A stretch of 35,464 bases of DNA from positions 1 to 35,464 of the IMG/VR virus record IMGVR_UViG_3300042887_003088; one strand, written 5' to 3'. The first letter of the stretch is position 1. Each line of letters starts with the position of its first letter. Origin of the DNA: a virus. Taxonomy: Duplodnaviria; Caudoviricetes. Shown one piece after another: positions 8,581-35,399 of this stretch. A program made the position numbers and the translations under genes. A model generated the notes under the pieces. That model did not search any database. It was not told the DNA's origin and saw only the letters and a list, made by a program, of their open reading frames with translations.

Positions 8581-9210
8581 ATGACCGTGGTAATAAACAA
8601 TTTTTTCCCTGGAGAACTGCAACCCAGCACAATAATAGGAGGCTGTATTGCCATTTATGAAAATGCTTGGCCGAATCCAGAGAACACCATCAAGATGGTA
8701 GAAAATGCAGCTTCTGATTCAGATTCCGGGGTGCATTGGCAACGAGCGGAAACCACCCAGGACGGTCCACATCAAACCGCCAGAACAAATAAAATGATGG
8801 GCGTCACTCATCTAGCAGGAGTTACCAATAACGCTGTGTTACAAAATGTTCATAACCAGTTCTATATGTTATTGTTAGCGGCGTCAATTCCGTATGCCAA
8901 AAGATTTAATATCAAAGAAGGGCTATGGCACGAGCATTACCAAATGTTAAAATATGAGCAAGGTGAAGAATATAAAGGTCATTATGATGGCGGAACCCCA
9001 ATAGGAAGATCAATATCTTGCTTGTGCTATCTAAATGGCAATTTTGAAGGTGGCGAGTTAGAATTTCCTAATTTTCACGTGAAAATTAAACCTGAACCTG
9101 GAATGTTGGTTTTATTTCCGTCCAACTATGCGTATCTACACATTGCGCATCCAGTGACATCTGGCACAAAATACAGCATGGTAACGTGGATCAAGGATAG
9201 AGAAATATAA
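8581..9210 (+). CDS. Prolyl 4-hydroxylase-like 2OG-Fe(II) oxygenase
   Basis: LKY..GEEYKGHYD, RSISCLCYLN.NFEGGELEF, LFPSNYAYLH...PVTSGTKYSMVTW give HxD...H...K. Confidence 0.92.
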   Translation: MTVVINNFFPGELQPSTIIGGCIAIYENAWPNPENTIKMVENAASDSDSGVHWQRAETTQDGPHQTARTNKMMGVTHLAGVTNNAVLQNVHNQFYMLLLAASIPYAKRFNIKEGLWHEHYQMLKYEQGEEYKGHYDGGTPIGRSISCLCYLNGNFEGGELEFPNFHVKIKPEPGMLVLFPSNYAYLHIAHPVTSGTKYSMVTWIKDREI

Positions 9211-9211
9211 T

Positions 9212-9880
9212 ATGTATTTTCCTTCTTTGTGTGTAGATAATTTTTATAACAATCCAGATGTAATTAGAGATTTTGCGTTGTCATTGGAGTTTAAAGCAAC
9301 TACCGCGGTTCCGTGGCCGGGCAAAAGATCCCCGTCGCTGGACGCTGTAAATCCAATATTTTTTAAAAATTTCTGTGACAAATTATTTTGTTTATCCTTT
9401 GATTTCAAAAAAACCAACAGTGTTAAATGGGCAGTAGAAACATACTTTCAAATTGCAGAACCAGATCAATACTCATCAATCAACAAAGGCTGGATTCATT
9501 CAGACTATAAACCTTATGCAGGAGTTATATATCTTACTCCTGGTATTGATATGGATTGCGGGACATCGTTGTTTAAACCAAAAAACTCATTCGACATTCC
9601 TATAAATCTAGAAGAAAAACAAGATATGTTTTTGAACTTTGAAAAAAACAAAACTGATTTTTACTACGAAAAACTACAAGAAAACAACAGTCTATTTGAA
9701 GAAACTGTAAATTTTAAAAATATCTACAATAGAATTGTTGCTTATGACGGATTCCAGTATCACGGTGTAAATAAATTCACAGGGTATGATAACAGGCCTA
9801 GACTTACACAGGTATTTTTTATTCAAGAAGTAAGTTCTGACTATTTTCCTATTCCTGCATCGAGACAAATATTATTATGA
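9212..9880 (+). CDS. Putative 2OG-Fe(II) oxygenase (DUF6445-like)
   Basis: VDNFYNNPD.IR, WPGKRS, WIHSD, AGVIYL.P...GTSLF, YNR...YD...YHG and RLTQVFF. Confidence 0.8.
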   Translation: MYFPSLCVDNFYNNPDVIRDFALSLEFKATTAVPWPGKRSPSLDAVNPIFFKNFCDKLFCLSFDFKKTNSVKWAVETYFQIAEPDQYSSINKGWIHSDYKPYAGVIYLTPGIDMDCGTSLFKPKNSFDIPINLEEKQDMFLNFEKNKTDFYYEKLQENNSLFEETVNFKNIYNRIVAYDGFQYHGVNKFTGYDNRPRLTQVFFIQEVSSDYFPIPASRQILL

Positions 9881-10680
9881 AATTTCCATATTTTTTTATC
9901 AAACAAGAAGAAATAGTTTTAGACTGTTTTACTCATGTCCCACATGCCTATGACTACGCTAAAATTGACTGGGCCATGAAGTATGCGCCTGAGTGGTGGA
10001 AACAGTTGCCATCGAAAGTTCCAGACTCTGATCCTCCTTTGGTAACCTTAAAACATTGTAATGCAGTTATAGAATACTATAAAAAAGGCATAGCTATTCC
10101 TGCATGGTTTGAAATGGATATGATTGTAAATCCCATAGGATCTGAAAAAGAATGGGAATGGACTAGTTCTAACCAAGACGTTTCTACTAGCTCTAATCAT
10201 CCAGGTGTGCAATTTCCCGGCTTTGCTGGCCAGCATGGTCATAATATAAAACTTATTTCTCCTTGGGCAATCAAGACCAAAAAAGACATGAATTTTACTT
10301 GGACTGAGCCGTTATGGAATATGCAAAATACACATAAAGTGATATCAGTATTGCCTGGCCTAGTGAACTACAAATATACCCATGCCACCGAAATCAACCT
10401 ATTTGTAAAACAGACCAACGAACTACAAACTTGCACCATACTGCCGCTGACTCCACTGGCTATTATGCACCCTATGACTGAAAAAAAGATCAAAATTGTG
10501 CAACATTTGGTTACGCTACCTGAATATCAACGAGTATTTGGCATTGATAAATTTGTGATGAAAAGAGATGAATATCGTGATTCTACTCTGCTTTATAATA
10601 ACAAAAAAAGACTGCATGAAAAAATAGAACAGCAAGGACAAGGGTGTCCTTTTCACCAAGGAAAACATAATGGAAAATAA
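9877..10680 (+). CDS. Hypothetical phage protein, possible beta-clip fold; paralog of 47..775
   Basis: PEWWKQLP, TLKHC, GIAIPAW, IKLISPW, LPGLV, TPLA and a C-terminal GCPFH. It is coupled to its neighbours by overlapping start/stop codons. Confidence 0.65.
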   Translation: MKFPYFFIKQEEIVLDCFTHVPHAYDYAKIDWAMKYAPEWWKQLPSKVPDSDPPLVTLKHCNAVIEYYKKGIAIPAWFEMDMIVNPIGSEKEWEWTSSNQDVSTSSNHPGVQFPGFAGQHGHNIKLISPWAIKTKKDMNFTWTEPLWNMQNTHKVISVLPGLVNYKYTHATEINLFVKQTNELQTCTILPLTPLAIMHPMTEKKIKIVQHLVTLPEYQRVFGIDKFVMKRDEYRDSTLLYNNKKRLHEKIEQQGQGCPFHQGKHNGK

Positions 10681-11347
10681 AGATTTTTTTGAAAAAAACA
10701 AATACCTAATACTTAGATCTGCTATTTCTACAGAACTAAGAGATTTTGTTACGCAATATGCACTGTTTGACGAAATGCAGAATTTTACTCCGGAAAAGGC
10801 CTTTGTAGGAAGTGGTGCACCGTGTCCCGAAGCTCATTCAAAATACTGCGATCCTGCAATGGAAAGTATGTTGTTATACCTTCACCCTGTTATGGAACAA
10901 GCAGTGGGGTTTTCTTTGTTTCCAACTTATTGTTATTATAGAATTTATAGAAACGATGATAAAATGCCTCCCCATATAGATAGGCCTAGTTGTGAAATTT
11001 CTGCAACTGTGTGTTTAAATTTTAATTACAACGTTGATAACGTTTGGTCAATATATTTAGACGGCAATCAAGTTGATCTGCTACCTGGTGACCTAGCAAT
11101 TTATCGAGGCTGTGAAGTCCCTCATTGGAGAGAACCGTTTGACCGAGGTCAAGATGCTTGGCAAGTACAGGCGTTCTTTCATTATGTAGATGTTCACGGA
11201 CCAAATGCAGAATGGAAATGGGACAAACGACCTTCTCTAGGCGTGATGGGTTCGGGCCCTAATATTGAACGGCTAAAAGAGTATAACGCATCTACTAAGC
11301 CTAGTAATGCTATGGCTGAGAAATCCTATATTCAATACACCAAATGA
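10670..11347 (+). CDS. Phage 2OG-Fe(II) oxygenase
   Basis: PTY.YYRIY, HIDRPSCEISATV, L.PGDL.IYRGC...HWR and QAFFHYV. Confidence 0.88.
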   Translation: MENKDFFEKNKYLILRSAISTELRDFVTQYALFDEMQNFTPEKAFVGSGAPCPEAHSKYCDPAMESMLLYLHPVMEQAVGFSLFPTYCYYRIYRNDDKMPPHIDRPSCEISATVCLNFNYNVDNVWSIYLDGNQVDLLPGDLAIYRGCEVPHWREPFDRGQDAWQVQAFFHYVDVHGPNAEWKWDKRPSLGVMGSGPNIERLKEYNASTKPSNAMAEKSYIQYTK

Positions 11348-11943
11348 TAGACGCTTGGTTTCCCACACTGATATATAATGATCAATTGGATTTCCCCCAT
11401 AATCAGCATCTTGTAAACAAAGCCAAGACTATATATTCTCAAACTCAAGGCCATACTGTTACCAAGTGGGCCTGTGATACCTACAATACTGTGGGATTTT
11501 ATGATTATAAATCTGATCAAGACACTGCGGTTCTATCCTTGATCGAACTGCTTCGAATCAAGGTACACGAATTTGGTAAAAGCTACGGTATTAATCTTCC
11601 TATCGAATATCTTCACTGCAAAGACTTTTGGTTTAATCTTGCAGAGCCGGGAGCCTATCAAGAATACCATCAACACACTCGATCTCATTTCAGTGTTAGT
11701 TACTATCTAGCTGTGGGAGAAAACTGTGGGAAAATTCGATTTAGAAGCATAGAAGCCATGACTGACATGTATACTCTTCCGGTAGAAGGCAATCTTGAAA
11801 ATTTTGCTAGTAGAAAAACTTGTGCATATGAACCAGTAGAAGATTTGCTTTTGATATTTAGATCTAATGTTCCACACATGGTGGAAAAAAATTACAGTGA
11901 AGATCTCAGGATCAGCATTAGCGCAAACTTTGAATATGCCTAG
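11344..11943 (+). CDS. 2OG-Fe(II) oxygenase, TIGR02466 family
   Basis: WFPTLIY, WFN...G.YQEYHQH..SHFS..YY, LLIFRS.VPHMV and RISISANF. Confidence 0.88.
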   Translation: MIDAWFPTLIYNDQLDFPHNQHLVNKAKTIYSQTQGHTVTKWACDTYNTVGFYDYKSDQDTAVLSLIELLRIKVHEFGKSYGINLPIEYLHCKDFWFNLAEPGAYQEYHQHTRSHFSVSYYLAVGENCGKIRFRSIEAMTDMYTLPVEGNLENFASRKTCAYEPVEDLLLIFRSNVPHMVEKNYSEDLRISISANFEYA

Positions 11944-14598: not shown

Positions 14599-17500
14599 TT
14601 AGTTCAAAAAGTAATTGAATGCTAAAGGTATTCCTATAACACCGCCTCTAAATTCAAAAACTGCATTCATTTTAATTGGACCTGCTGTAGTAGTAGTGAT
14701 AACGTTTGAACTAATAAACACACTACCTGCTGTAATAGAGTTTACGTTTAAACTTGCGCCACCACCACCAATTTGACCAGCAATATAAGCCTTAATAGCT
14801 CGCTGTGTAGGTACTATATTGTCCGAATCTGCTGTAAAGAACGGATCTGTGGAGAATTCAGTGATTGTTGCTGATCCGCCACCTAGTGTCACATTACCCA
14901 AATTAAGTTCTTGTAGTCCCGAAATATTAAATGCATCTGCATTCAGTGTAGCAATACCAGTTGACTGTTCAATAGCAAACAAATCACCAACACGGAAGTT
15001 ACCGTCTTGGTCAGTTGATGTAAAGAACACCCTGCCTCCTCCATTATCCACTGCTTCGTTGGCAGCAATAACGGGTTGGGTGCTCAACCCTGGATAATTG
15101 GTTTCTTCAAAGTTTCCTGTGCCTATGTCCAGAAAATCGTGTCCAGTCAATCGAACCTGGCTGTATCTAATCCTGGTTTCGACACTGACTCCGTCTGTTG
15201 GTGCTTCTGATCTTGTTAGTTGTGGGCTGATTTGGAAGAATGCTGTGTAAGCACCTGCGTTTTCTCCCAAGAAGGTGATCACGTTGACCAATTTGAAAGT
15301 TCTGTCAGGTAAATGACTGAACACCACGTTGGCGCCTGGCACTGGTTGAACGCTGATTCTTCTCACGGCTACAAACGATCCTGGCTGGAATAGATTGGAA
15401 TAACCATCACCCAGGTCTACTTCTCCACTGCCTGTGACGTAACTTGCACCTCTGTTTACAAAACTTGGATTGGCCAGCACTCCACTGCCTGTTCTCACGG
15501 TTACGGGAGATTCAAATGTGTTGTTGGGATCAGTGAATGTAATAGTTGGTGCTGTGGCATAGCCCGATCCAGGTTCTGTGATATTAACTTGGAACAGTTT
15601 GTCAGCAGCCACTTTAGCACGACCTCTAGCGGTAGCGCCTGTTCTAATATAAGTAGCTACTGTTGTAGGACCGCCGCCGCCAACTCCTACGAACAAGCCG
15701 TATCTATTTCTGTTACCAAAAGTGATTGCGTTGAAACCGTTGGCTGCTGTAGATGTGGCTCTTAGAGTCCAAGTAACACCATCTGGCGATGTTGCCGCTG
15801 TTGTGGTTGTACTCACAGCAAGGAATACTCCTTGACCGTAGGTAACTTTGTACCAATCTGCTGTGGCTGGCAGTGTGCTGGCAGCCCAAGTTATACCATC
15901 TAAACTATAAGCTGCAATTGCGCCGTTGGTGCTTGAAATAACAACAAATCTGTTGTTACCGTAGGCAATGCTTTCCCAGTTTGACGAACTTGGCAATGCA
16001 CCTGCAGTCCATGTTCCTGTAACACCTGTTGAGGTAGCATGATTGGCTATTGAGCCACCTCTCTGTATGGCCACAAATCTGTTTTTACCGTAGGCAATAG
16101 CTGTGAAGCCGGTAGTGGTTAGTGTGCCTGTTTGATCCCAGACTTCACCGTCGTTACTGATTCTCACTGTGGTTACATCATCGCTGATAGCTACAAATTT
16201 TTGTTTGCCGAAGGCCACATCAACCCATATAGCAGAAGTCTGCATGTTGGTTGCTGACCAAGTGATACCGTCATCGCTGTAAGCACCTGTGGTGTTGGCG
16301 ACGGTGCCAGCCACCGCTACAAATTTGCTGACTTTGCCCACTGAAGAACTGTCGTCAAAAAGACCTGCAGCCATTGCAGACCAGTTTGCTGCGCTTGGCA
16401 TCAAGCTAGTTTGTGAAGTCCAATTAACGCCATCTTCTGATGTTGCACCAGCGGTAACTCCATTGCGTAGAGCAACATATCTGCCACCTATGCCGTAACC
16501 TGAGTGATCAAAATCTAAGATAGCACCTGTGGTAGAATTCACTGCGGTGATTGTGATCACTAGATCATTGGCAGTTGTGGTGCCGCCTAGGCTGGTGCCT
16601 AGTATGGTTATGGTTTGTAATCTAGCATAACCTGTTCCGGCACCCTGAATAGATGGTATATATTTCCATCCATTACGTATCACTGTGAAAGTGGCTCCTA
16701 CACCTGATCCAGCATAAGTGCCTGTGACTGTGGTATACACAGCAGCAGTTTCACCGTATTTCACTGCGGTCCATGTGCCTGAAGTTGGCAGAGTGGCAGC
16801 TGTGCTGGCGTATCCAGGTGCTGAGAATGTCACTCTAGGTTCAATGACATAGGTAGTAGAAGCATCTGGATTAACTATGGTAGTTCCTGCTATCAAATGA
16901 TCAAATCCTGCTACACCGTCTGATTCTTTGACCAGTCCTGCCACTTTTGTACCTGAATTATAAGTGGTAATTATACCAAACTGTCCCGCACCTGCACCTC
17001 CTGTGAGCACAACTTTCATGCCTATATAGGCAGTGCTGGATTCGCCGTCTGTGGCAGCTATGGTTATACTAGTTGATGTTCCACCTTGAGCAGTGTTGGC
17101 AGCAGTCTTATAACCAAATCCGCCAAGATTTCCTTCTGCTTCTGGAGCATTTGTGCTGTCGTCAACCAGGTCCAACATGCGAACTTCAAACACAGCATCG
17201 TCACGGAATTCATCAGCTTCAACAATGGCTCCACTACCGCCACCAGTTAGCGTGTAAGTTACTTCAGTATAGTCAATACCTGCGTTGGTAAATTCTAATT
17301 GTGTTAGTGCTGATCCGTCAGTGATGACTCGATCAATCTCTGCATCAAATTGCAGGCGGTTATCAACTATGGCTGTGCCGGCAGTTTCAGTGTCGTCGAA
17401 ACCTTCTGCTACAGAACCAAAATCTCCGTATGAGTTGTTGCCGTTAGTTGCTCTGATTCGGCCGCCTGCTTCAGCTAGGTATGCTATGTGTGCATAGTAT

Positions 17501-20500
17501 GAGAACACAGATACTAATTCAGCACGACCGTTGTTGGTGATCCAAGCGCCAATACCGTCTGATATTACCTGAGTAAAGTCATTGGAAACAATACTGTCAT
17601 TACCACCGTTGTGTAAAGAGCCATCGATCTTCTGTCCCACAGCCGCTGTTCCCAATGTGGTTAATCCCTGCACATAGGGTGAACGTGTTATAATCCAAGT
17701 GCGATAATCGTCTGGTCCCCAACCTGGATCCAAACTTGCATATGCTCCTGCACTCACTCTAGAAGTACCGTATTCATTTTCAGCTAACAGGTCACCAGTG
17801 AGTCCTTCGAGTGTTTGATCTCTTAGACCTGTGGCATCTCTGAGATAATACATATCTTCTTCCAAACTGCCCATTACACTGTTTGCATAGTATCTAGCTG
17901 CGTATCTTGATTTGTAGTTGCCTGGATATTTCAAATCGTATTTCAATGCATCTATGTAGGTGTTGACGTCTCTGAGACAGGCTGCGCTACTGTAGTAAAG
18001 AGCCACTGTCATTGAACCACTGCCGTTGCTGGCAATATTAAATGCGGTGTTTGAATCTCTTGTGGTAGCAATCTTAAATGTAGTAGCACTGACCACATTC
18101 TGTACATAGTAAGTAGTGGTGGTAGTTACTCCACCAATAGTCGTACCTGTGAATCTTACAGCTGCATTTCTTGTCATCCATGCCGTTGATGTACAAGTGA
18201 ATACGTCAGTGGCAGCTGTGGCAGCGGTAACTGTGGTAGTGAAAGTTGAATCAATGTAAGCATCAATTTCTGCAACAATATAATCTCTGTTGCGCTCTAA
18301 TTGTAGCACAGCATAATCAACCATTCTGTTGCCTGTGGCACAGCGACTGCCTTCGTTGGTAGCACCGTAAAGGATATCATCTACCAAGGTCATTAGTGTT
18401 TCAATACGAGCCTGTGCAGTTGCGTTACCGCCCACATTGGCCAGTGCTTCTGTTTTGGCGTTAGTTAATGCGTCTCTAGTAATGGTTTTTTGATTACCTA
18501 CAAATACCTCTGCTGCTGAAGCTCTTAGATATGAGTATGCTGCTTCTCTAGATTTGAAGTTGCTGTTGAACATAAAGTCAAACATCACAGCTTCTAATAT
18601 CAATCGAGTATCTCTAATACACTTGGTTTGTAGATATCGAATCTTAGGAGTAACACCATCAGTTTTGTATGCACTTGGGAATATCGCATTAAAGGAAGTA
18701 CCACCTGACGATAGGCAAGATACAGTAATACTTGTTATGTTAACAATGTCGCCTGCTGCTAATCCGTGTGTTGCAGTAGTCACTACCGCATATCCTGTAG
18801 AGTTATTATAGACAAAGTTACTAACTGCTAACTCTGTTCCATTGGATTTCGTTACTATTCCACCACTGACATAGGTGTGTGCGAGAGTATGCTTACCAAC
18901 GTAGATTCTAAAATCTGTCGAGGTCAACGAAGTTTCGTCTACTACAAAGTCAGTGTGCCATGCTACTGCATTTAAATCATCTACAACATTTTGGACAATG
19001 GTTTCTTGTGCAGCGTCTAATGTCACTGCGGCTGCTATCAATGCAGTGGTCGATGTAACGGCATTAGTAGCTGTAGGGTAATCTATAACTTCTACAGATA
19101 TACTAATACCAGCACCGTTGGTAAATGTAGTTAACACTGCGCCGCCATATGTAGCTGCCAGTTGGAATGTGTTAGTGGTTACTGTGCCTACTACCCAATA
19201 TTTGACACCGTTGGTTAACCCGTTGCCAGTTTCTCTTGGAACAACTGCATCTCCTACACTTAATCCATGACTGTTGCTGGTAAGTGTGTCTGTACCAGAT
19301 ATTGTAGTAACTGTGATCTGTGGCGTTGTGGCCTCAGTGGAATCACCTTGTATGATATTAGTAATGATGTCTACTAATGCACCTACTGTGGCATTGGCAG
19401 CTGCACCACCTGTAAGGTTGGTAACATCAGTCCACTGCGTAGCGTTATTTCCAGTGGATTTCGTTACTGCGGTGTTGATAATAATCTGTTGCACAATTTC
19501 TTTTAACCTAGCGTAGGCAGCTACTGTGGCAGCAATTTCTGTACTGTCAATTTGCAATGCTGTGCTGTTGTCGCCGTCAAAGTATGCTGTGCCGGCTACT
19601 AGTGTAGCCCAGGTTCCGCCATAGGTCAAATCATAGCCCATGGCATCAACAATAAATGCCACGTCACGTTTGCATTTGGTTCTGCTGAATTTTAATGTGC
19701 TGTAATTCTCATTTAAGAAAGCTGTGATTTCTTCTTTGATAAATTCTTTGTTTTCACTCAGCAGTTTTCTTGCATCGCCAAACCCGGTTAGATATCCAAC
19801 ATTATAACCTGTAGGGTCTGTGTTTGATACCATCAAGGTAGAGCTAATTTTATAATCAATCTGATGCTGCATGACTCTGACTAACTGTGCTGCATCTGCT
19901 GCTTCGTCTGTGCTGGCGTATGGGAATGATGCGCTTTGAACTGCGGTGTTACCAGAGCTTTCTGTAACGTTGGCTCCTCGAACAATTTGGTCAACCACTG
20001 TTTGTAATCTAGTCAGTGTGCTTACGCTGTAGCCTGCATCGGATCTATTAGTTAGACTGCCTGCTGGGCCTGCATTGGTTGAACGAAGCTCATCCCCAAT
20101 CACACAAGTCTGTTCTGGCACAATGATAGGCAGTGTCTCACGATACTGACCTGTGGCAACTCTTATGAGATTGTTGGGGCTACGTCTTGCTGGCACACTG
20201 GCTATGGCAGCTGCTATCTGAGGTGCCGTGACTGCTGCTGCTCTAGCTGTGATGGCATTAGTGATCAGTGTAACACTTGCTGTTATTGTGGTCAATGCAT
20301 CAGCTTCTGCTGTGATATCGCTGTTGAAATATTGAGCCACTGTGGCAGTAGAATTGTCACCGTTCAGTGTCTGATAATTTATTGTTGGAGCTGTCTGTGC
20401 CAACACATTTCCAACAACTGTGAGCATGTAGTTGTAGGCAGCTACAGATTCGTCTGACTCGATGGCTAGTCCTGGATATGCTTCTGTCTCGCCTTCGGTG

Positions 20501-22443
20501 AGACCGCCAATCAATGAATTAGCTACTCCACGTGATTTAATATTACCGCCATGACATAGATCATAGGTTACTGCATCTAGTGTAAATCCTACATCTCTCT
20601 CACATTTGAAATCATCGTAGACAAATGCTGTGGTAAATGGTGCAACGTTATTAGTAATTTGATTTTGTATAAATTCTGTGACTTCACGTTGTATGAACAC
20701 ACGATTCAATTCTAATAGATGCCGTGCGTCGGGATTTCTAGGACCACGTTCTACCTGTTCGCAAGCATAGCGTATGGTCTTAAACGGTTTGTCCCAGGTT
20801 CGGCCGTGTATCGGCGAAGGCAAATCTGTGCCTGTAGTTGCTACAAAATAAGTATGATCAACTTCACCGAGAGCAATCCACTCTGGATCTTGACCATTTG
20901 ATCTTAATACAGTACCTTCGCGCCCAATTGGCAGTCTCTCTGGACCATTTCCGCCAAAAAAGACTAGATCTCCTTGCACTGACAGCACACTGGTTTCTGT
21001 ACCAATGTTTAACAGATTCCAATATGTGCCTGTACTATCCTGATCTGGTCTGCTGTTAGCTTGGCCGCCGCCGGCTGTGCCCACAGTAGAACCGTCATCC
21101 CCTTCCGATCTATGGGCCAATACGCAAATAAATGCATTGGCTCCGAATCTTACTGCATCACCTAATAGATATTCTCTGTCATCTTCCCACTCACCTTGCC
21201 AGCTGATACCGGCATTGAGTCTTGACCAATATGTGGTATTTGGTGGTTCAGCTGACACTGTGGCAGTCATTGAACCCGATGCATTTGCAGCAATATTAAA
21301 TGTTGTGCCGCCTGGTGTGGTACTCACAGTAAACTCACCTGCGGCCACAGTTTTTACATAGTACCTAGCTGTAGTAAACACCCCACCAAATGTTGTGCCC
21401 GTAAATCTTACAGACATTCCCACTGCTAGGCCTGCTGTTGAGGCTACGCCAAAGACATCGGTAGCTCCAGTTACTGACGTGACAGTAACTGTAGTTGAAG
21501 GAGAATCCTGTGCAGCTAGATAGGTATAACCACCGACAGATACTACCTCACCTATTTTATATGATGTAGTATTAGCCCAAGAAGATTGAAATTTAAATCC
21601 TTCTGTGTATAGATCCCATCTTGATGCCTGTGTTGGTGGTGTTTCAGAGGCAGCAGCGGCAGTATGCACAGTTTTTGCTATGTATTGATTACCGCCGTAT
21701 GTAACAATATCACCAGGTTGATACAGAGTAGCATTATTCCAAGTGCTTTCAAATTCTGCTCCTTCTGTGAACTGGCTCCAACGACCTGCGGTGCTGTCTG
21801 TTAAAAATGCAGCATCAGCAGTATGTTGTGTGGTACAGATCCACAGACCGGCACCGTATTTTACCACATCATTGAGTTTGTATCTAGTGGCTGTAACCCA
21901 GGTGCCTTTGTATTCTATACCAGGATTAAATGAATCCCATTTGGCTTGATCAGCTTCTAATCCCGATGCTTCGGTTGCAGCTGATGTATGATAGGTATTA
22001 CACACATAGGTGTAACCACCATACTGTACTAGATCATTTACCTTGTAGCGAGTGGCTACTGTCCAATCGTTCTTCCAATCAAGTCCCTCTGCATATAGCG
22101 TCCATTTGGCTTGATCAGCTTCTAATCCTGACGCTGTAGTAGCTGCTGAAGTGTGGCTGTCGTTACAGATGTAAAGAAGGCCGCCGTATTTGACCACGTC
22201 ATTGAGTTTGTAGAAAGTACTGATATTCCAATCTCCAGTCCAGCTTTGACCGTCACTCATCTGATTCCATTTGGTCGGACTGTATTCTAAATCTGTGTTA
22301 AAATCTGCAGCAGAAGTGTGTCCCACTGCACAGATATATGTGCGAGCACCATATCTTACCACATCATCGATGTAATAGGTGGTGGATGGAGACCATGTGT
22401 TTTTCCAAACAAATCTAATTCTACCTAATTTAAATTCTGCCAT
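14599..22443 (-). CDS. Giant multidomain virion fibre protein (2614 aa)
   Basis: N-terminal tandem W...Y..DVV.YG...Y.C...H (CBM5/12-like) repeats, then a 'KPFKTIRYAC...IRVATGQY.E.LPIIVP...GDELRST' beta-helix entry and helical C-x-R-D repeats. These are followed by W..IAYG..RFVA propeller-like repeats and a C-terminal 'FFTSTDQDGNFRVG...PTQRAIK'. A GGAG RBS is present. Confidence 0.82.
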   Translation of the reverse strand: MAEFKLGRIRFVWKNTWSPSTTYYIDDVVRYGARTYICAVGHTSAADFNTDLEYSPTKWNQMSDGQSWTGDWNISTFYKLNDVVKYGGLLYICNDSHTSAATTASGLEADQAKWTLYAEGLDWKNDWTVATRYKVNDLVQYGGYTYVCNTYHTSAATEASGLEADQAKWDSFNPGIEYKGTWVTATRYKLNDVVKYGAGLWICTTQHTADAAFLTDSTAGRWSQFTEGAEFESTWNNATLYQPGDIVTYGGNQYIAKTVHTAAAASETPPTQASRWDLYTEGFKFQSSWANTTSYKIGEVVSVGGYTYLAAQDSPSTTVTVTSVTGATDVFGVASTAGLAVGMSVRFTGTTFGGVFTTARYYVKTVAAGEFTVSTTPGGTTFNIAANASGSMTATVSAEPPNTTYWSRLNAGISWQGEWEDDREYLLGDAVRFGANAFICVLAHRSEGDDGSTVGTAGGGQANSRPDQDSTGTYWNLLNIGTETSVLSVQGDLVFFGGNGPERLPIGREGTVLRSNGQDPEWIALGEVDHTYFVATTGTDLPSPIHGRTWDKPFKTIRYACEQVERGPRNPDARHLLELNRVFIQREVTEFIQNQITNNVAPFTTAFVYDDFKCERDVGFTLDAVTYDLCHGGNIKSRGVANSLIGGLTEGETEAYPGLAIESDESVAAYNYMLTVVGNVLAQTAPTINYQTLNGDNSTATVAQYFNSDITAEADALTTITASVTLITNAITARAAAVTAPQIAAAIASVPARRSPNNLIRVATGQYRETLPIIVPEQTCVIGDELRSTNAGPAGSLTNRSDAGYSVSTLTRLQTVVDQIVRGANVTESSGNTAVQSASFPYASTDEAADAAQLVRVMQHQIDYKISSTLMVSNTDPTGYNVGYLTGFGDARKLLSENKEFIKEEITAFLNENYSTLKFSRTKCKRDVAFIVDAMGYDLTYGGTWATLVAGTAYFDGDNSTALQIDSTEIAATVAAYARLKEIVQQIIINTAVTKSTGNNATQWTDVTNLTGGAAANATVGALVDIITNIIQGDSTEATTPQITVTTISGTDTLTSNSHGLSVGDAVVPRETGNGLTNGVKYWVVGTVTTNTFQLAATYGGAVLTTFTNGAGISISVEVIDYPTATNAVTSTTALIAAAVTLDAAQETIVQNVVDDLNAVAWHTDFVVDETSLTSTDFRIYVGKHTLAHTYVSGGIVTKSNGTELAVSNFVYNNSTGYAVVTTATHGLAAGDIVNITSITVSCLSSGGTSFNAIFPSAYKTDGVTPKIRYLQTKCIRDTRLILEAVMFDFMFNSNFKSREAAYSYLRASAAEVFVGNQKTITRDALTNAKTEALANVGGNATAQARIETLMTLVDDILYGATNEGSRCATGNRMVDYAVLQLERNRDYIVAEIDAYIDSTFTTTVTAATAATDVFTCTSTAWMTRNAAVRFTGTTIGGVTTTTTYYVQNVVSATTFKIATTRDSNTAFNIASNGSGSMTVALYYSSAACLRDVNTYIDALKYDLKYPGNYKSRYAARYYANSVMGSLEEDMYYLRDATGLRDQTLEGLTGDLLAENEYGTSRVSAGAYASLDPGWGPDDYRTWIITRSPYVQGLTTLGTAAVGQKIDGSLHNGGNDSIVSNDFTQVISDGIGAWITNNGRAELVSVFSYYAHIAYLAEAGGRIRATNGNNSYGDFGSVAEGFDDTETAGTAIVDNRLQFDAEIDRVITDGSALTQLEFTNAGIDYTEVTYTLTGGGSGAIVEADEFRDDAVFEVRMLDLVDDSTNAPEAEGNLGGFGYKTAANTAQGGTSTSITIAATDGESSTAYIGMKVVLTGGAGAGQFGIITTYNSGTKVAGLVKESDGVAGFDHLIAGTTIVNPDASTTYVIEPRVTFSAPGYASTAATLPTSGTWTAVKYGETAAVYTTVTGTYAGSGVGATFTVIRNGWKYIPSIQGAGTGYARLQTITILGTSLGGTTTANDLVITITAVNSTTGAILDFDHSGYGIGGRYVALRNGVTAGATSEDGVNWTSQTSLMPSAANWSAMAAGLFDDSSSVGKVSKFVAVAGTVANTTGAYSDDGITWSATNMQTSAIWVDVAFGKQKFVAISDDVTTVRISNDGEVWDQTGTLTTTGFTAIAYGKNRFVAIQRGGSIANHATSTGVTGTWTAGALPSSSNWESIAYGNNRFVVISSTNGAIAAYSLDGITWAASTLPATADWYKVTYGQGVFLAVSTTTTAATSPDGVTWTLRATSTAANGFNAITFGNRNRYGLFVGVGGGGPTTVATYIRTGATARGRAKVAADKLFQVNITEPGSGYATAPTITFTDPNNTFESPVTVRTGSGVLANPSFVNRGASYVTGSGEVDLGDGYSNLFQPGSFVAVRRISVQPVPGANVVFSHLPDRTFKLVNVITFLGENAGAYTAFFQISPQLTRSEAPTDGVSVETRIRYSQVRLTGHDFLDIGTGNFEETNYPGLSTQPVIAANEAVDNGGGRVFFTSTDQDGNFRVGDLFAIEQSTGIATLNADAFNISGLQELNLGNVTLGGGSATITEFSTDPFFTADSDNIVPTQRAIKAYIAGQIGGGGASLNVNSITAGSVFISSNVITTTTAGPIKMNAVFEFRGGVIGIPLAFNYFLN
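21937..22128 (+). repeat. Exact 27-bp direct repeat within the N-terminal repeats of the giant protein
   Basis: ccatttggcttgatcagcttctaatcc at 21937-21963 and 22102-22128, 165 nt (55 aa) apart. It encodes GLEADQAKW. Confidence 0.9.
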
Positions 22444-22473: not shown

Positions 22474-25400
22474 TCATTGTTTGAACGATCTGTAAAACAT
22501 TGTTTGGGCTAACATACTGCCACTTATTCCAGAATTTGCTGCGTCAAATTCTGCTCTTACTGGTACAATAATTCGTAGGCCAGCAACGTTGTTAATTCTA
22601 TCAGGTCCTACCAGTACAGTTCCTGCTATAAAACTACCTACTGCAATTTCTGATCCACCTACACTAAGTCTATTTGCCAAGTAAGCAGCTATGGCTCGTT
22701 GAGTTGGAACAATATTATTTGAGTCTGCTATGAACAACGGGTCGGTAGAAAATTCTCTAACAACTGCTCCGGTGCCTCCAATCCTAATACCACCAAGTCG
22801 TAGTTCAGTAAGTCCAGAAAGATCAAAGAAGTCTGAACTAATTGTCACAGTTCCTGTGGCCTGTTCAACTGCAAACAATTCGCCTGCTCTAAAGTTACCA
22901 CTTTGATCTGTTGAAGTATAAAATACTCGTCCTCTATTTTCTTCTACGATTTCATTAAATGGTTGTGGATCATAAAATCCACTGTATAATTCAGGATAAT
23001 TGGTTTCTTCAAAATTTCCTGTACCTATGTCCAAGAAATCATGACCTGTAATTCTACATTGAGAGAATTTAGTTCTTATAGTTATTTCAGTGAGATGCGT
23101 TAAATTGTCACGAACTTTGATTTCTGGTGTTATACGTATTCTTGCTGCTAGCCCTCTGTCTGTGAGACCTAGTTCTTCAATGGTAACCAATGTATAGTCA
23201 CTGGACAAGTTACCTATGGTTAGATTAGAACCAACTTTGGGATATGTCACTAAATCGTTGATAACAATAAATTTACCGCTAGGAATCACATCTGCGAATC
23301 CATTACCAGATATGGTTACTCTAGTAGATATTGTTCTATATCCTAGACCTCTATTAAGCCAACTTGGTTGTGCCAATACTCCGTCTCCGGTGCGGCATTC
23401 AATTCTTGCATCTCTATTGTTGTTGGGATCAACAAATACACAGGTAGGACCTTCTATATAACCAGATCCCGGATCCCATAATTTCACACTGCTTATAACT
23501 CCACTGGCAATTGTTACCCGTCCCAACGCTCTTGCGCCAGTTTGTATTTTGTTGAATTTATTTGAATTATCAATAGCGATCCATGTAGGTGTATTGTTTC
23601 CTACTGTGGAATCTCTAGCATCTACGTATGGGGTGCCAAATGCCACTGACTGCCAACTCTGTGTACTGGCCAGTGTTCTCGAAGTCCATACAATGCCGTC
23701 AAAACTGGTTGCTGCAAAATTCGTTATGCCAAATGTTGGATCGGCACCAACTGTTCGATTTCCTGTGTCTCCCACAGCAAAAAATACACCCTGTGCATAT
23801 CTAATTTTTTTCCAATTGTGTGCTGTGCTACCATCTTGTGACGGCATAGTAGCAGGTAACCAATCATTACCATCAAAGCTGTAGGCCGCATCGCCTGTGC
23901 TTGATATGGCAACGAATCTGCCGTTGCCATAGGCAATGCTGACCCAATCTTTGGCGCTGGAGTCTGCAACCACGTCCATGATATGGCCAGCCCATGACCA
24001 TGTGTTTAAAGTGGAGTTGTATGTACCTGTTGCTACAATGTTTCCACTGTTGGCCAAAACCACATATCTGTTTTTGCCGTAGGCTATGTCTACCCATTGG
24101 TTTAGAGTGGAATCACCAAATGAGGGCAATGCCAACGAACTCCAAGTTGTTCCATTGAGACTGTAGGCCGCTGTGTTAGAGTTTGTGGCCACAGCAATGA
24201 ATAACCCGCCACCGTATATGCAAGAATTCCATTGCAGAGACACCGGCATTGATCTTGTGGTCCAGGTAATACCATTTAAAGAACTAGCTGCCACAGAACT
24301 GCCTTGACGTATGGCTACAAATATATGATCGCCTAGTGTGGGATAAGTTACTCTACCTGCTGCTAGGCATTTCCAATCACCCACTGTGGGCATGTTGAAT
24401 GCAGTCCAGTTAGTGCCATCCGAACTATACATAGCAGCACTACCAGCAGTGGATACTACTACAAATTTACCGCTAGCAGCCAGGTTGTCTTCGCCTGTGC
24501 CATAGGTCTTTTGTTGTGCAGCCAGTATAGAATTTGTGCTGTCGTCGCTGACATCAGTGACTAAAATAATCAAATCATTAACTGGTGTAGCTCCACCTAA
24601 AAGGTCACCGTCTATGGTTAGTAGTTGGCCAGCCTCATATCCTGCACCCCCGTTGTTGATAGTCAATGTGTAATTTCTACCTCGTTTTACAATGTTAAAT
24701 GTAGCTAAGGCAGCAACAACATCTATAGTTGTACCGGTGCCTGATTCATTAACCGCAATGTTCGTGTAAGTTTCAGTGGTGTCACCAAACACAATTTCTG
24801 ACCAAGTGGTGCTAGCAGGCGTTGTAATTTCTTGTGCTGAATACGCAGGAGCAGAAAATATCACTCTGGGTTCTATTCGATATGTGGTGTTGGTCAACAA
24901 CGGCACTGTCGGCAGTTTACCTGGAATCACATGGTCCCATCCTGGCTGATCATCGGATTCTCTGTATACAGTAACTACTTTAGTGACATTGTCATAGGCA
25001 GTGATGTACCCATACTGTCCTGTGCCAGCACCGCTGGTAATGAGTATTCTCATTCCAAGATATTCAGCAATACTGTTGGCATCATTGGTCGCTATGGTTA
25101 TAGTAAAAGCATCGCCCGTTTGTGCATTGTTCTGCACCACCACATAACCACTGCCGCCTATTTCTTGTGCTATCAGAGCAGTGTCTGCATTGGCATCCAG
25201 TCGTCTTGCTTCAAACACAGCATCATCTCTAAACTCTTCAAAAATCACATCAGCATTGACACCAGCCCCAGTAAACACCGCAGTGGCTTCTGTATAATCT
25301 TGTCCAAAATTTGTCCATTCTAAGATTTGTATTTCGTCGACAAAATCTCCTGCAAATGCAGCAGCTACTATAGCCTGCTGAGCTCTGGTATAGTTTCTTG

Positions 25401-28092
25401 CTGTGGCTGGGATTTCCGAAGCATCGACGCCATCTGATATGGCGCCATAAGTGCCATAAGAACAGTTGCCGTTTGTGGCTCGTATAATGCCACCGTCTTC
25501 GGCAAAATAACCAATGTGGCAATAGTATGTGAACACTGAAACTAGTTCTGCACGACCGTTGTTGCGAACCCAGGCGCCAATACCATCACTGAGTACCTGT
25601 GTGAAATCATTGCTAACTATGGATCGATTGCCGCCGTTATGAAGTGCGCCATCAATCTTTTGTCCAACACATCCTGTGCCTAAAGTGGTAACACCTTGAA
25701 TATACGGTGATCGAGTGGTAATCCAGGTGCTGGTATCGGCAGGCCCCCATCCTGGATCCAATGACACATAGGCTCCGCCCAATGGCAGTTGGTATAGATC
25801 AAAAGCCACAGGTGGATTCAGCACAGACTCTATACCTTTCAACGTGCAGTTGCGAATCCCTGTGGCGTTTCTAACATAAAACATATCTTCAGAAGTTGTG
25901 CAGCCTAATATTTGATTTCTGTAATATCTGGCTCTTAACAAAGATTTGTAATTTCCTGCGTAGATTATATCATATTTCCAAGCATCTACGTATCCCATAA
26001 CACTGTATCTCAGCAAATCTGCATCAAACACATATGTAGGATATGTGGCCTGCATAAAGGCCACAGCTTCTTCAATAATAAAAGTCTTGTTGGCTTCTAG
26101 TTGTAACACAGTATTGGTATATGCAGTGGAAGTCTGTGCTGTGTTAGATCCTGTTAGTGTGGGGTCTGACCCAGAACTGTTGATATAAAAATTAATGTAG
26201 GCAATTATATCTGTAATTTTATTTTGTATTGCCAATGCAGCAGCACTGCTGGTAGCGATAGGTCGAGGACTTGTGTCTAAGATTTCATTTGGCGGAATCT
26301 CATTATCAAAAATTGGCGGGTTAAATGATATCGGAGTGGTTTCTGTCAAAAACACTTGATTCAACGAATTGCCCACCGACTTTGCTGGAATAATAGGTGT
26401 TCCTGCTATAATTGCCTGTATTATTGCAGAAATTCTATTTAACACAGCTATGTGACGTGTTCGATCAGCAGCCAGTATCACCGGCCCAGACGGTTTTATT
26501 GTTGTGCTACGGAGTTCAGCACCTAGTATAACTGTTTTAGGAGGCACAATAATTGGAGTTAATTCTGTATATTCTCCTACAGCAACCTTGATTGTGGTGT
26601 GTCCATTGTAGCCATCATTGACCTGCTCACAGGCAAATCGAATAGTTCTCCAAGGCAAGAATTGACTGGTTCCCCGCTCTGGATTTGTATAGTCATCAAC
26701 GCCGTCGAGATCCACATATCTTACTCTGGCCGAATCTCCCCAGTAGGCATAATCAACACTGCCTTCTTGATTCGTAACAAGAACTTGACCCACTGTTCCG
26801 ATTGGAACATTTGTTGGTCCAAAAGTACTACCATCGCCTACAGATGTTCTTGAAAGATCAAAGGTCAATAGATCGCCACGCTGTGACATTCCCACTTCCG
26901 AACCAGCCTGCAACACAAGATCCCAATAAATTATACCCTCACCGTTATCACCTGGGAAATTTGAATTAGCAGCAATGTGTTCAGTTGTGGCCTTGTAGAC
27001 ATTGCCTTTGAATACAACAAGATCATTCAAACTATATGTTTGACCCGCAGTCCAAGAACTTCTATATTCTTGAGAAGTAGTAACTATTTCCCAATTACTG
27101 GTATCTAAGTAGTCCAGTGAGCTGCCGTCATTTACGGTATCAGATATTGCTATGTATAGATTGCCACCGCGACGAACCACATCACCAACTTTATAATCTA
27201 TAGTTGCACTCCATGTGCCCATAAAATCAGTAGCTTTGGACAGTAAATTCCAATTTACAGTGTCTTCTGAAATGCTAGAACTGTTGGTATGATTGGTAGC
27301 GGAGATGTACAGATATCCTCCGTATCTTACTATGTCACCGACAGCATAATAAACTGCATTGCTCCAGTTTTGATAAAAATTAAATCCGGGAAATTCTGTA
27401 ACAAAATTCTCATTGGTAATATTAGATGATGCAACGTGTCCTGTGACACAGCGTAAAATACTGCCACCATATTTTACAAGGTCGTTACGTCTGTATCTAG
27501 TAGTAGCAGTCCATGTTCCTTTGTACTCAATGCCCTCGTAGTATATCTGCCACAATTCGCCTGAGCTGTCATCTTCAGTGTCATTGTTTCCTATTTCTAG
27601 ACCTAATGCTGTAGTAGATGAAGTGTGCTCTACAATACATTTATACGCAATACCGTTGTATCTAATAATGTCACCAACGCCGTATCTGGTGGTTGGAGTC
27701 CATTCTGATCTCCAATTGTCTGTTGCTAAGTACACTGCCCAATTAAACACAAATGCATTAAATAATGCCGCGGAAGTGTGGCTTACAACACAGATATATA
27801 TGACACCACCATATAGTGCAAGATCACCGGGATTATACAGAGTTGTGCCGCTCCAATTTCCACGCCACACATACCCGTCGGTCATTTTCAGCCAAGTTGG
27901 AGTCGGCTGTGTGTCTGAAGGATTATTATAATAATTTTGGTCAGCAGCAAAAGTTGATGCAGTGTGTTGGCGTAGGCATATCCAGGTGCTGCCACCATAT
28001 CTCACTACATCATCTTTATTATATGTGGATGAATCGGCTGCCCATTCATTCTTCCACGTATATCTAATTCTACTGATCTTAAATTCTGCCAT
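22474..28092 (-). CDS. Giant multidomain virion fibre protein (1872 aa), paralog of 14599..22443
   Basis: Same domain order as its paralog: MAEFK.(G/S)RIR..WKN, EDM.Y.R.ATG.R, SLDPGWGP, RSPY.QG.TTLG, SNDFTQV.SDGIGAW, TGHDFLDIGTGNFEETNYP and TSTDQ.GNFR. Confidence 0.82.
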   Translation of the reverse strand: MAEFKISRIRYTWKNEWAADSSTYNKDDVVRYGGSTWICLRQHTASTFAADQNYYNNPSDTQPTPTWLKMTDGYVWRGNWSGTTLYNPGDLALYGGVIYICVVSHTSAALFNAFVFNWAVYLATDNWRSEWTPTTRYGVGDIIRYNGIAYKCIVEHTSSTTALGLEIGNNDTEDDSSGELWQIYYEGIEYKGTWTATTRYRRNDLVKYGGSILRCVTGHVASSNITNENFVTEFPGFNFYQNWSNAVYYAVGDIVRYGGYLYISATNHTNSSSISEDTVNWNLLSKATDFMGTWSATIDYKVGDVVRRGGNLYIAISDTVNDGSSLDYLDTSNWEIVTTSQEYRSSWTAGQTYSLNDLVVFKGNVYKATTEHIAANSNFPGDNGEGIIYWDLVLQAGSEVGMSQRGDLLTFDLSRTSVGDGSTFGPTNVPIGTVGQVLVTNQEGSVDYAYWGDSARVRYVDLDGVDDYTNPERGTSQFLPWRTIRFACEQVNDGYNGHTTIKVAVGEYTELTPIIVPPKTVILGAELRSTTIKPSGPVILAADRTRHIAVLNRISAIIQAIIAGTPIIPAKSVGNSLNQVFLTETTPISFNPPIFDNEIPPNEILDTSPRPIATSSAAALAIQNKITDIIAYINFYINSSGSDPTLTGSNTAQTSTAYTNTVLQLEANKTFIIEEAVAFMQATYPTYVFDADLLRYSVMGYVDAWKYDIIYAGNYKSLLRARYYRNQILGCTTSEDMFYVRNATGIRNCTLKGIESVLNPPVAFDLYQLPLGGAYVSLDPGWGPADTSTWITTRSPYIQGVTTLGTGCVGQKIDGALHNGGNRSIVSNDFTQVLSDGIGAWVRNNGRAELVSVFTYYCHIGYFAEDGGIIRATNGNCSYGTYGAISDGVDASEIPATARNYTRAQQAIVAAAFAGDFVDEIQILEWTNFGQDYTEATAVFTGAGVNADVIFEEFRDDAVFEARRLDANADTALIAQEIGGSGYVVVQNNAQTGDAFTITIATNDANSIAEYLGMRILITSGAGTGQYGYITAYDNVTKVVTVYRESDDQPGWDHVIPGKLPTVPLLTNTTYRIEPRVIFSAPAYSAQEITTPASTTWSEIVFGDTTETYTNIAVNESGTGTTIDVVAALATFNIVKRGRNYTLTINNGGAGYEAGQLLTIDGDLLGGATPVNDLIILVTDVSDDSTNSILAAQQKTYGTGEDNLAASGKFVVVSTAGSAAMYSSDGTNWTAFNMPTVGDWKCLAAGRVTYPTLGDHIFVAIRQGSSVAASSLNGITWTTRSMPVSLQWNSCIYGGGLFIAVATNSNTAAYSLNGTTWSSLALPSFGDSTLNQWVDIAYGKNRYVVLANSGNIVATGTYNSTLNTWSWAGHIMDVVADSSAKDWVSIAYGNGRFVAISSTGDAAYSFDGNDWLPATMPSQDGSTAHNWKKIRYAQGVFFAVGDTGNRTVGADPTFGITNFAATSFDGIVWTSRTLASTQSWQSVAFGTPYVDARDSTVGNNTPTWIAIDNSNKFNKIQTGARALGRVTIASGVISSVKLWDPGSGYIEGPTCVFVDPNNNRDARIECRTGDGVLAQPSWLNRGLGYRTISTRVTISGNGFADVIPSGKFIVINDLVTYPKVGSNLTIGNLSSDYTLVTIEELGLTDRGLAARIRITPEIKVRDNLTHLTEITIRTKFSQCRITGHDFLDIGTGNFEETNYPELYSGFYDPQPFNEIVEENRGRVFYTSTDQSGNFRAGELFAVEQATGTVTISSDFFDLSGLTELRLGGIRIGGTGAVVREFSTDPLFIADSNNIVPTQRAIAAYLANRLSVGGSEIAVGSFIAGTVLVGPDRINNVAGLRIIVPVRAEFDAANSGISGSMLAQTMFYRSFKQ

Positions 28093-34223: not shown

Positions 34224-35399
34224 TTAAGCAAACTTAACATTACCGCTAGTGATAGCAACGTTAGCCAAATAATCAGCTGCGTTACCTAGAGATGATGCTG
34301 TGTTAGTCAATTCAACATAACCATAACGTGTCATGAATGATACGACTGGTTCGAATGTTGATGGATCAAGTACAACTCCACTGCTCATCAATGGAATGTA
34401 TGGGCAGTAGAAAGCGGCTGCATCAGATTCAGAAGAACCTTTGTAACCAATTAGTACTGGAGCACTGTCAGCGGCATAACCGTTAACATAGATCTTCATA
34501 GCACTGTTCAATGTACCAACAAACTTGGTGTTTGTAGGAGCTTCGAATGTACCTTCTGTTGTACGAGCAAATGCGCTTGTAGTAGCAGACTGAAGAATTG
34601 TCAATGCAAATGGACTAACAACTGCAAAGTTACCTGCGCCACGACGTGTACGCTGTGCAATGATGTTGCTAGCACGGTTAATTTGAACAGCTAAAGCAGC
34701 GTGTTCGTCACCAACGAATGTAGCAGTACCACTAACAGTAGCCTGGTCGTAGGTTAGTACGGCTGTGCCAGATAGTGTTGTCAAGCTACGTAGAACTTCT
34801 TGATCGATCTCAGCTGTGATCTCTTGTGCAAGAGCAGCCATGATTTCTGCTTCGATGTCAATGCCTTGTTGGGCTTGTGCATCTTGAGCAGCTTCAAACG
34901 TCCAGCGAGCTGATAACTTACGTGTCTTAGCTTCAACTGTTTGTTTCAAGATCTGAATGCTCATTCTGTTACCAGCTGCACCTTCTTTGGCTGCTGTTGC
35001 ATCAGCTCTGCCATTTGTGTTACCAGAATATCCTTCTGCAACCTTAAATGGTGATAGAGCTTCTTCACCAGCACTTGCACTGTCACCAGTACTGCCTGTG
35101 TAGTTGTCTGCGTAACGAACACGTAGAGTGTGGATTTGACCCACTGGGCCAGTCATAGGCTGGACACCTACCAACTCGTTAGCAATAACTGTTGGCATTA
35201 CACGTCTAATGACGGGTAGAATAACACGGTTAAGTGTTGCGATATTGCCGGCGGATGTGGCTCCAGCAGTGGCACTCTCTGCCAAATACTTGCGGGTATT
35301 TTCTAGAGTAGTTGCCATTACTGAACGCTTGTTACCTTGAAGACCTTCTAAAAGAGCTTCTTTGGTTTCCGACCAGCGTGACTCGAGTAATTGTGACAT
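34224..35399 (-). CDS. gp23: Major capsid protein, T4 gp23 family
   Basis: LENT, RRVMP..IA.ELVGVQPMTGPVGQI, VEAKTRKL.A.W..E.AQD, EI.AEID.E, RRGAGNF, GYKG..E.DA..FYCPYIPL and F.P...FMTRYG. An AAGGAG RBS is present. Confidence 0.97.
   Translation of the reverse strand: MSQLLESRWSETKEALLEGLQGNKRSVMATTLENTRKYLAESATAGATSAGNIATLNRVILPVIRRVMPTVIANELVGVQPMTGPVGQIHTLRVRYADNYTGSTGDSASAGEEALSPFKVAEGYSGNTNGRADATAAKEGAAGNRMSIQILKQTVEAKTRKLSARWTFEAAQDAQAQQGIDIEAEIMAALAQEITAEIDQEVLRSLTTLSGTAVLTYDQATVSGTATFVGDEHAALAVQINRASNIIAQRTRRGAGNFAVVSPFALTILQSATTSAFARTTEGTFEAPTNTKFVGTLNSAMKIYVNGYAADSAPVLIGYKGSSESDAAAFYCPYIPLMSSGVVLDPSTFEPVVSFMTRYGYVELTNTASSLGNAADYLANVAITSGNVKFA

Follow-up and report, generated by a model that had tools for sequence, protein, structure and literature searches.

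The window, i.e. the whole stretch of 35,464 bases analysed here, corresponds to a complete virus record. Its minus strand carries a run of structural genes, including those of two giant paralogues (1872 and 2614 aa), both of which have N-terminal CBM5/12 repeats, match tail-fibre PHROGs (9851, 5342 and 4527) and are encoded on the same strand as gp23 and downstream of it, i.e. within the structural gene block (Table 1). Relatives with a capsid protein 87–89 % identical to that of the window have a genome size of around 350 kb, and the phage is an uncultured jumbo phage. Photosystem reaction-centre genes were found in none of ten related records, with both cyanophage controls positive; a cyanobacterial host is therefore unlikely. 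Among the remaining genes, a subtilase of 676 aa (positions 4347–6377, minus strand; PF00082, E 5e-22) is located amid fibre-like genes, and a 2OG-Fe(II) oxygenase cluster (862–2591 and 8581–11943) adjoins fibre genes and includes a rubrerythrin-like gene (1428–1943). Similar 2OG-Fe(II) oxygenases adjoin the haem oxygenase gene in phage Mosig.

Table 1. Features of the window discussed in the text (positions refer to the window)
Feature	Position	Strand	Remarks
Major capsid protein Gp23, T4-like	34224..35399	-	PF07068, E 3e-97; used for placing the phage among relatives
1872-aa paralogous fibre protein	22474..28092	-	PHROG 9851, E 7e-157
Fifth domain copy, in the paralogue	25900..26481	-	Permuted (G-H before A-B-E-F); lacks Cys-x-Arg-Asp
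2614-aa giant tail-fibre-type protein	14599..22443	-	Host of four domains; PHROG 9851 tail fibre, E 8e-166
N-terminal region, ~aa 1-490, CBM5/12-type repeats	20974..22443	-	PF02839, 6 stretches, E 2e-31; boundary approximate
Repeat 1, whole phycobiliprotein-like globin domain, aa 572-744	20212..20730	-	CERD at 20593-20604
Orphan G-H helix pair, aa 802-869	19837..20040	-	Predicted to form a circularly permuted domain together with repeat 4
Repeat 2, whole domain, aa 890-1035	19339..19776	-	Copy modelled; CKRD at 19663-19674
Insert of ~86 aa between repeats 2 and 3	19069..19326	-	No Pfam match
Repeat 3, helices A-B, aa 1135-1158	18970..19041	-	Contiguous with the rest of the repeat in orthologues
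107-aa insert within repeat 3	18649..18969	-	Weak Pfam matches only (E1_FCCH, E 0.014)
Repeat 3, helices E-H, aa 1266-1362	18358..18648	-	CIRD at 18610-18621; family profile E 1e-19
Repeat 4, helices A-B, aa 1375-1400	18244..18321	-	
80-aa insert within repeat 4	18004..18243	-	
Repeat 4, helices E-F, aa 1481-1524	17872..18003	-	CLRD at 17968-17979; no G-H after it

The sequence-only reading had proposed four phycobiliprotein-like helical repeats bearing the bilin-attachment motif Cys-x-Arg-Asp (CxRD) in the larger of the two proteins. All eight peptides quoted for the helix pairs are present in its ORF, the coordinates given for the four second helices are exact, and the motifs start at aa 614, 924, 1275 and 1489. 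These four are the only CxRD motifs in the protein, compared with 0.032 expected from its composition, and they take up 4 of its 15 Cys residues. For repeat 3, first and second helices had likewise been paired correctly across an insert, since orthologues (L046, L062 and L059) carry this repeat without the 107-aa interruption.

Fold and sequence comparisons independently agree on the family and, although single tests are moderate, confirm the four repeats computationally as remote phycobiliprotein homologues. The non-globin helical bundle named beforehand as the refuting outcome did not occur: the AlphaFold model of repeat 2 (pLDDT 91.4, pTM 0.87, six helices) shows a globin-type fold with phycobiliproteins as best matches. 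In a structure comparison against 48,161 chains, the top eight were allophycocyanin, phycoerythrin and ApcE at Z 11.6–14.0, where values below around 13 may be generic for helical bundles. The best match was 8or7_A (Z 14.0, rmsd 2.2 over 114 residues), and the alignments with 8or7, 5aqd and 4xxi (Z 13.0–14.0 over 111–135 residues) span the globin fold, helices A–H. Haem and non-haem sensor globins followed together with biliverdin-binding photocobilins at Z 10–11. The suggested Foldseek check on the PDB also ranked phycobiliproteins first, but only at E≥0.018 and with nothing at E≤0.001, and a search of the ESM Atlas gave no usable match.

At the sequence level, a search with repeat 2 alone gave four PDB matches, the best three being phycocyanin alpha, at non-significant values (E 0.15–0.68), and a 38-row family profile reached E 0.072. 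A more diverse 78-row profile (A3) gave a best E of 3.9e-4 against the PDB, with phycobiliproteins as 39 of 40 matches and the motif in register; CxRD, present in four of four repeats, aligns with the alpha-84 site of CpcA. Moreover, 17 of 78 family members match PF00502 at E≤0.1, while every other family is matched by one member at most. The window's own single repeats gave no match to PF00502, so that they do not reach the Pfam gathering score, which was passed by the multi-repeat homologues P0100 and P0107 as whole proteins only. The N-terminal helices X–Y of phycobiliproteins serve in alpha–beta pairing. Both structural and sequence matches start at residue 37–40 of the phycobiliprotein chain, with other sequence preceding each repeat, which indicates that X–Y are absent and that the domain is not an antenna subunit. 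A proximal His is conserved in haem globins and globin-coupled sensors; His was not among the top residues in profile columns 9–100 of 1291 domains. One scan of prokaryote genomes by exact-peptide patterns, which reaches close relatives only, found no relative.

Repeat 4 stops after helix F, and a matching G–H half is found upstream, at aa 802–869. This orphan helix pair matches the G–H profile of the paralogue at E 7.8e-14 and that of the whole repeats at E 3.5e-4. In the paralogue, the A–F part of the fifth copy was recognized by hhalign at 99.8 %, and its G–H part matched the G–H half of the whole repeats at 93.9 % (control 1.4 %), with the permuted unit being modelled as a single body (pLDDT 91.5, pTM 0.84). 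In a fold search, this model gave poor matches only (best Z 5.1; Z 4.3–4.6 for phycobiliproteins), and 1b8d_A covered the A–F half only (78 residues, rmsd 2.5); the permutation therefore rests on the profile comparison and the pTM. Thus, a circular permutation is predicted for repeat 4, with repeats 2 and 3 inserted into a loop of this domain. The segments flanking the repeats, which have no PDB match, presumably resemble beta-helix rungs. The paralogue copy lacks CxRD in 28 of 33 sequences with the fold kept, and orthologues of the 2614-aa protein retain all three motifs of the nested segments in 115 of 120 cases. A third giant protein with the domain and a gp9/10-like N-terminus was seen in a related phage (G001:209003-216292, L088). 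A second type of array (P0056, P0095, P0100, L551 and L582) has up to 36 tandem copies, most of them shortened to ~110 aa with the last helix missing.

A profile search recovered 1588 family representatives (50 % identity), and single proteins held as many as 37 stretches. Of 50,697 phage records, 241 matched, and 240 of these bear the name Synechococcus, Prochlorococcus or Cyanophage. Conservation was assessed on 1291 non-redundant domains (2734 aligned rows, of which 2633 covered the motif, reduced at 60 % identity). CxRD is present in 1136 of these, and 1042 have no second Cys, which rules out an intra-domain disulfide for most copies. The motif Cys is 91 % conserved, against a mean column identity of ~21–31 %. 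In the 111 rows lacking it, which are not independent, Arg drops from 96 to 38 % and Asp from 99.9 to 56 %, a joint decay to which common descent or less reliable alignment of these rows may contribute. Asn21, Asp61, Gly65 and Asn67 are maintained in the same rows; profile positions 87–94 also drop but were left out because permuted copies lack that segment. Considering this joint decay, and that the motif is kept in orthologues and lost in the paralogue, CxRD behaves like a ligand site. The joint decay and the haem oxygenase (hemO) and reductase genes of relatives give indirect support to the four repeats as candidate bilin-binding domains. Copies from cultured cyanophages have CxRD in only 12 of 33 cases and CxDD in nine, and Cys-x-Asp-Asp or Cys-x-Thr-Asp is frequent in place of Cys-x-Arg-Asp among cyanophage copies (L405–L410 and L429–L430).

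First searches for bilin enzymes were blank in five of five records, as was a scan of 260 ORFs of G001, the nearest long relative of the window (DNA 82–85 % identical over long blocks). G001, however, is only 80 % complete and breaks off immediately ahead of the region where hsp20-clpS-hemO-reductase is located in G050, a complete relative, while the domain-positive fragments (G040–G046, G002–G005 and G007) also miss clpS. We therefore set these blank searches aside as counter-evidence. In fact, G094 overlaps the end of G001 with 100 % identity over 15.9 kb and carries the hemO and bilin reductase cassette ~9 kb further on, and G087 has an orthologue 78–80 % identical and both bilin enzymes on one contig.

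Co-occurrence was examined in ten records rated at least 90 % complete, which were reached through relatives and not at random. Five of these carry the domain and both enzymes (G050, G090, G138, G118 and G119), and three carry neither (G088, G089 and G091), G088 keeping hsp20-clpS without the cassette. The two with the domain only are both doubtful: G120 is a fragment of G119, which is 102 kb longer and has the locus at 99.99 % identity, so G120 was discarded as a counterexample, and G137 (93 % complete, 18 CxRD copies, no cassette) misses the entire hsp20-clpS block. Thus, hemO and reductase share a genome with the domain in 5/7 near-complete domain-bearing records, away from the fibre gene in the jumbo clade, and the reductase accompanies haem oxygenase in every positive record. 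A CpeT or CpeS lyase was found in none of five jumbo records. The split between jumbo phages with and without domain and enzymes is a single clade contrast, to which clpS and capsid trees added no further independent ones, whereas G118 and G119 represent a second lineage (capsid 36–38 % identical) with the enzymes beside groES, i.e. in another gene setting. The domain–enzyme pattern therefore rests on about two independent lineages.

An enzyme gene adjoining the domain gene was found in Sf-CH3 only (L393 / W07:21146-34862), where pcyA immediately precedes the gene of a virion structural protein with five domain matches; in P-SSM7, cpeT-pcyA is located ahead of gp5. G050 also encodes an ALA synthase (L272:927-2132; 567.5 bits, above the NCBIfam cut-off), thus possessing ALAS, HemO and bilin reductase. 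Directly downstream of its hemO-reductase genes (L288:5257-12176; G050 320–327 kb) are genes for a CHASE2-adenylate cyclase, F5/8, FecR, a curlin repeat, CsgG and CsgF, a block of curli-type secretion and signalling in a jumbo phage with similar genes in L375 and L626. The G001 genome (L084, L089 and L090), in turn, holds ~17 radical SAM genes and several Asp/Asn hydroxylases, as well as Fe-S assembly genes, a superoxide dismutase and a Bax-inhibitor-type protein.

Among cultured reductase-bearing phages, seven of the nine tested have the domain. It was not detected with a wider profile in the whole genomes of Mosig (haem oxygenase and reductase) and P-SSM2 (reductase), indicating that bilin enzymes have other uses as well. 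S-PM2 has nine domain copies and no reductase; its host makes bilins. The domain is also present in P-HM1, which carries CpeT, and in P-HM2, and none was found in P-SSP7. P-HM1 and P-HM2 have been reported not to adsorb in the dark, light-dependent adsorption of S-PM2 to be independent of host photosynthesis, P-SSM2 to adsorb in the dark, although light still enhances its adsorption, and P-SSP7 not to be stimulated by light (PMC6628666). The accessible text of that study names light-sensitive receptors or tail fibres for light-dependent adsorption, giving no candidate (PMC6628666). This comparison of adsorption and domain covers five phages, two of them near-identical.

Taken together, our data suggest a virion fibre loaded with bilin, the pigment being made by the phage's own haem oxygenase and reductase. 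For this chain of steps taken jointly, leaving its purpose aside, we estimate a probability of about 0.62. According to computed homology and fold, a phage lineage of phycobiliprotein-related globin domains is built into a tail-fibre-type protein, with the CxRD motif, as aligned, matching the alpha-84 site of phycocyanin. Phage hemO and bilin reductase, seen in the nearest long relative and presumed for the 35-kb window fragment, would convert host haem to biliverdin and then to a reduced bilin within the infected cell. Modelled on the bilin biosynthesis-associated globins (BBAGs) BBAG-1 and BBAG-3, one bilin per repeat would become attached covalently at the Cys, lyase-free and in the cytoplasm before fibre assembly. 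The fibre would be part of the particle, judging from the family annotation, since cultured homologues are annotated as virion structural proteins.

The most serious rival to a bilin-loaded fibre is a pigment-free structural module, i.e. a globin captured from a bilin-binding ancestor that now acts as a rigid spacer, with CxRD retained because it aids packing, forms a salt bridge or links chains. Arrays of up to 37 stretches per protein, the paralogue and many cyanophage copies doing without the full motif, and phages that have bilin enzymes without the domain are all in keeping with such a spacer. The fold, however, survives loss of the motif, so the motif is unneeded for folding, and yet its Cys is 91 % conserved; most domains also lack a partner Cys, and domain and enzymes occur together in two distant lineages. 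We regard a pigment-free spacer as rather unlikely. It is improbable that the pocket takes up another ligand, be it haem, biliverdin alone or a tetrapyrrole of the host surface, or that the domain mimics a host phycobiliprotein for recognition. Sensor globins and biliverdin-binding photocobilins as the next fold matches would fit another ligand, and nearly all of the 241 matching cultured-phage records being cyanophages would fit mimicry. No His is conserved in profile columns 9–100, though, the constant company of reductase and oxygenase points to a reduced bilin, and the ten related records without photosystem genes indicate no cyanobacterial host. For the latter reason, host-pigment mimicry is the weakest of the three purposes offered in the sequence-only reading, i.e. 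sensing, photoprotection and mimicry.

If bilin is bound, our first choice of purpose, which falls just short of even odds, is a passive one, the bilin stabilizing the globin modules and quenching light-generated oxidants at the exposed fibre; it is preferred because reported BBAGs are photoinert and copy numbers run into dozens. An optical sunscreen was ruled out by inference, as chromophores that absorb green or red light, a few hundred in number, cannot keep UV off the capsid. Light control of adsorption comes second and, again given a bound bilin, is a tentative option. Taken as a rival in its own right, such a light switch, in which light changes the fibre conformation and gates adsorption in favour of daytime infection, is unlikely. 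The light-dependent adsorbers P-HM1, P-HM2 and S-PM2 carry the domain and P-SSM2 and P-SSP7, which infect or adsorb in the dark, do not, and the permuted repeat, which would clamp two distant parts of the fibre, is a plausible hinge. These are five phages only, however, two of them near-identical, and P-SSM2 is light-enhanced without the domain, while dozens of copies exceed the need of a switch. Phytochromes isomerize the 15,16 double bond of their bilin, a bond missing from phycoerythrobilin, the PcyX product. Reported BBAGs, furthermore, are described as photoactivity-lacking or photoinert (PMC10151467).

The boldest version, i.e. that phages build pigmented particles whose tail-fibre globins carry the phage's own bilin, sense light and time adsorption, is likewise unlikely. 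If true, it would provide a substrate for the orphan bilin enzymes of phages and account, from the virus side, for the light-dependent adsorption of cyanophages such as S-PM2 and P-HM2. To our knowledge, a covalently pigmented virion would be a first. With a candidate acceptor bearing the right motif, it can be tested what haem oxygenase and bilin reductase are for in phages whose hosts are not photosynthetic, and also why some cyanophages adsorb only in light, as cultured S-PM2 and P-HM1 carry the domain. The large family also adds a viral branch to the question of phycobiliprotein origin. A search not extending to subscription papers and supplements found no published description of the domain in phage, so novelty is provisional. 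The window contributes a permuted, nested arrangement of the repeats, a motif whose residues decay together, an enzyme cassette traced along with the counterexamples to it, and a lead on adsorption.

Compared with light-harvesting phycobiliproteins (PF00502), the fibre domains have in common the globin core helices A–H and CxRD in the alpha-84 register; phycocyanin alpha (CpcA) is closest by sequence, with the bilin-binding domain of ApcE also near. They differ in their low identity (16–23 %), in lacking the X–Y helices and any phycobilisome context, and in being embedded, repeated, split and permuted in a 2614-aa phage protein. Thus, judged by alignment and model, the fibre domain would work like a bilin-binding globin, yet it falls outside the light-harvesting phycobiliproteins (no X–Y, no Pfam score). 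The same domain is found in giant ‘baseplate wedge / virion structural / tail fibre’ proteins of T4-like cyanophages (S-PM2, P-HM1, Syn9 and S-CAM1), which are annotated without a pigment-related domain and whose copies are more often degenerate.

BBAGs resemble the phage domains in being non-cyanobacterial CXRD globins from genomes with haem oxygenase and bilin reductase, and BBAG-1 and BBAG-3 bind bilins without lyases (PMC10151467). They are, however, cellular and clustered with the enzyme genes, whereas the phage domains are part of a viral fibre encoded far from these genes; the accessible text mentions phages only for PcyX and PcyA (PMC10151467). Photocobilins and photoglobins (PDB 8j2w and 8j2y; Z 10.7–11.1) also have a bilin-related globin as a module of a larger protein but differ in their fusion to a B12 domain, in CXQD in photoglobins (PMC10151467) and in not being viral. 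In cyanophages, bilin enzymes are usually read as serving the host antenna (PMC10452541). For phage hemO-pcyA/pcyX-valaS cassettes, to which the hemO and reductase of the window's relatives and the additional ALA synthase of G050 correspond, a light-harvesting role was considered unlikely for the phage in question and the purpose of hemO-pcyA/X was left open, the main text containing no occurrence of ‘tail’ (PMC11480375). Set beside these cassettes, the fibre domain represents a candidate acceptor encoded by the phage itself.
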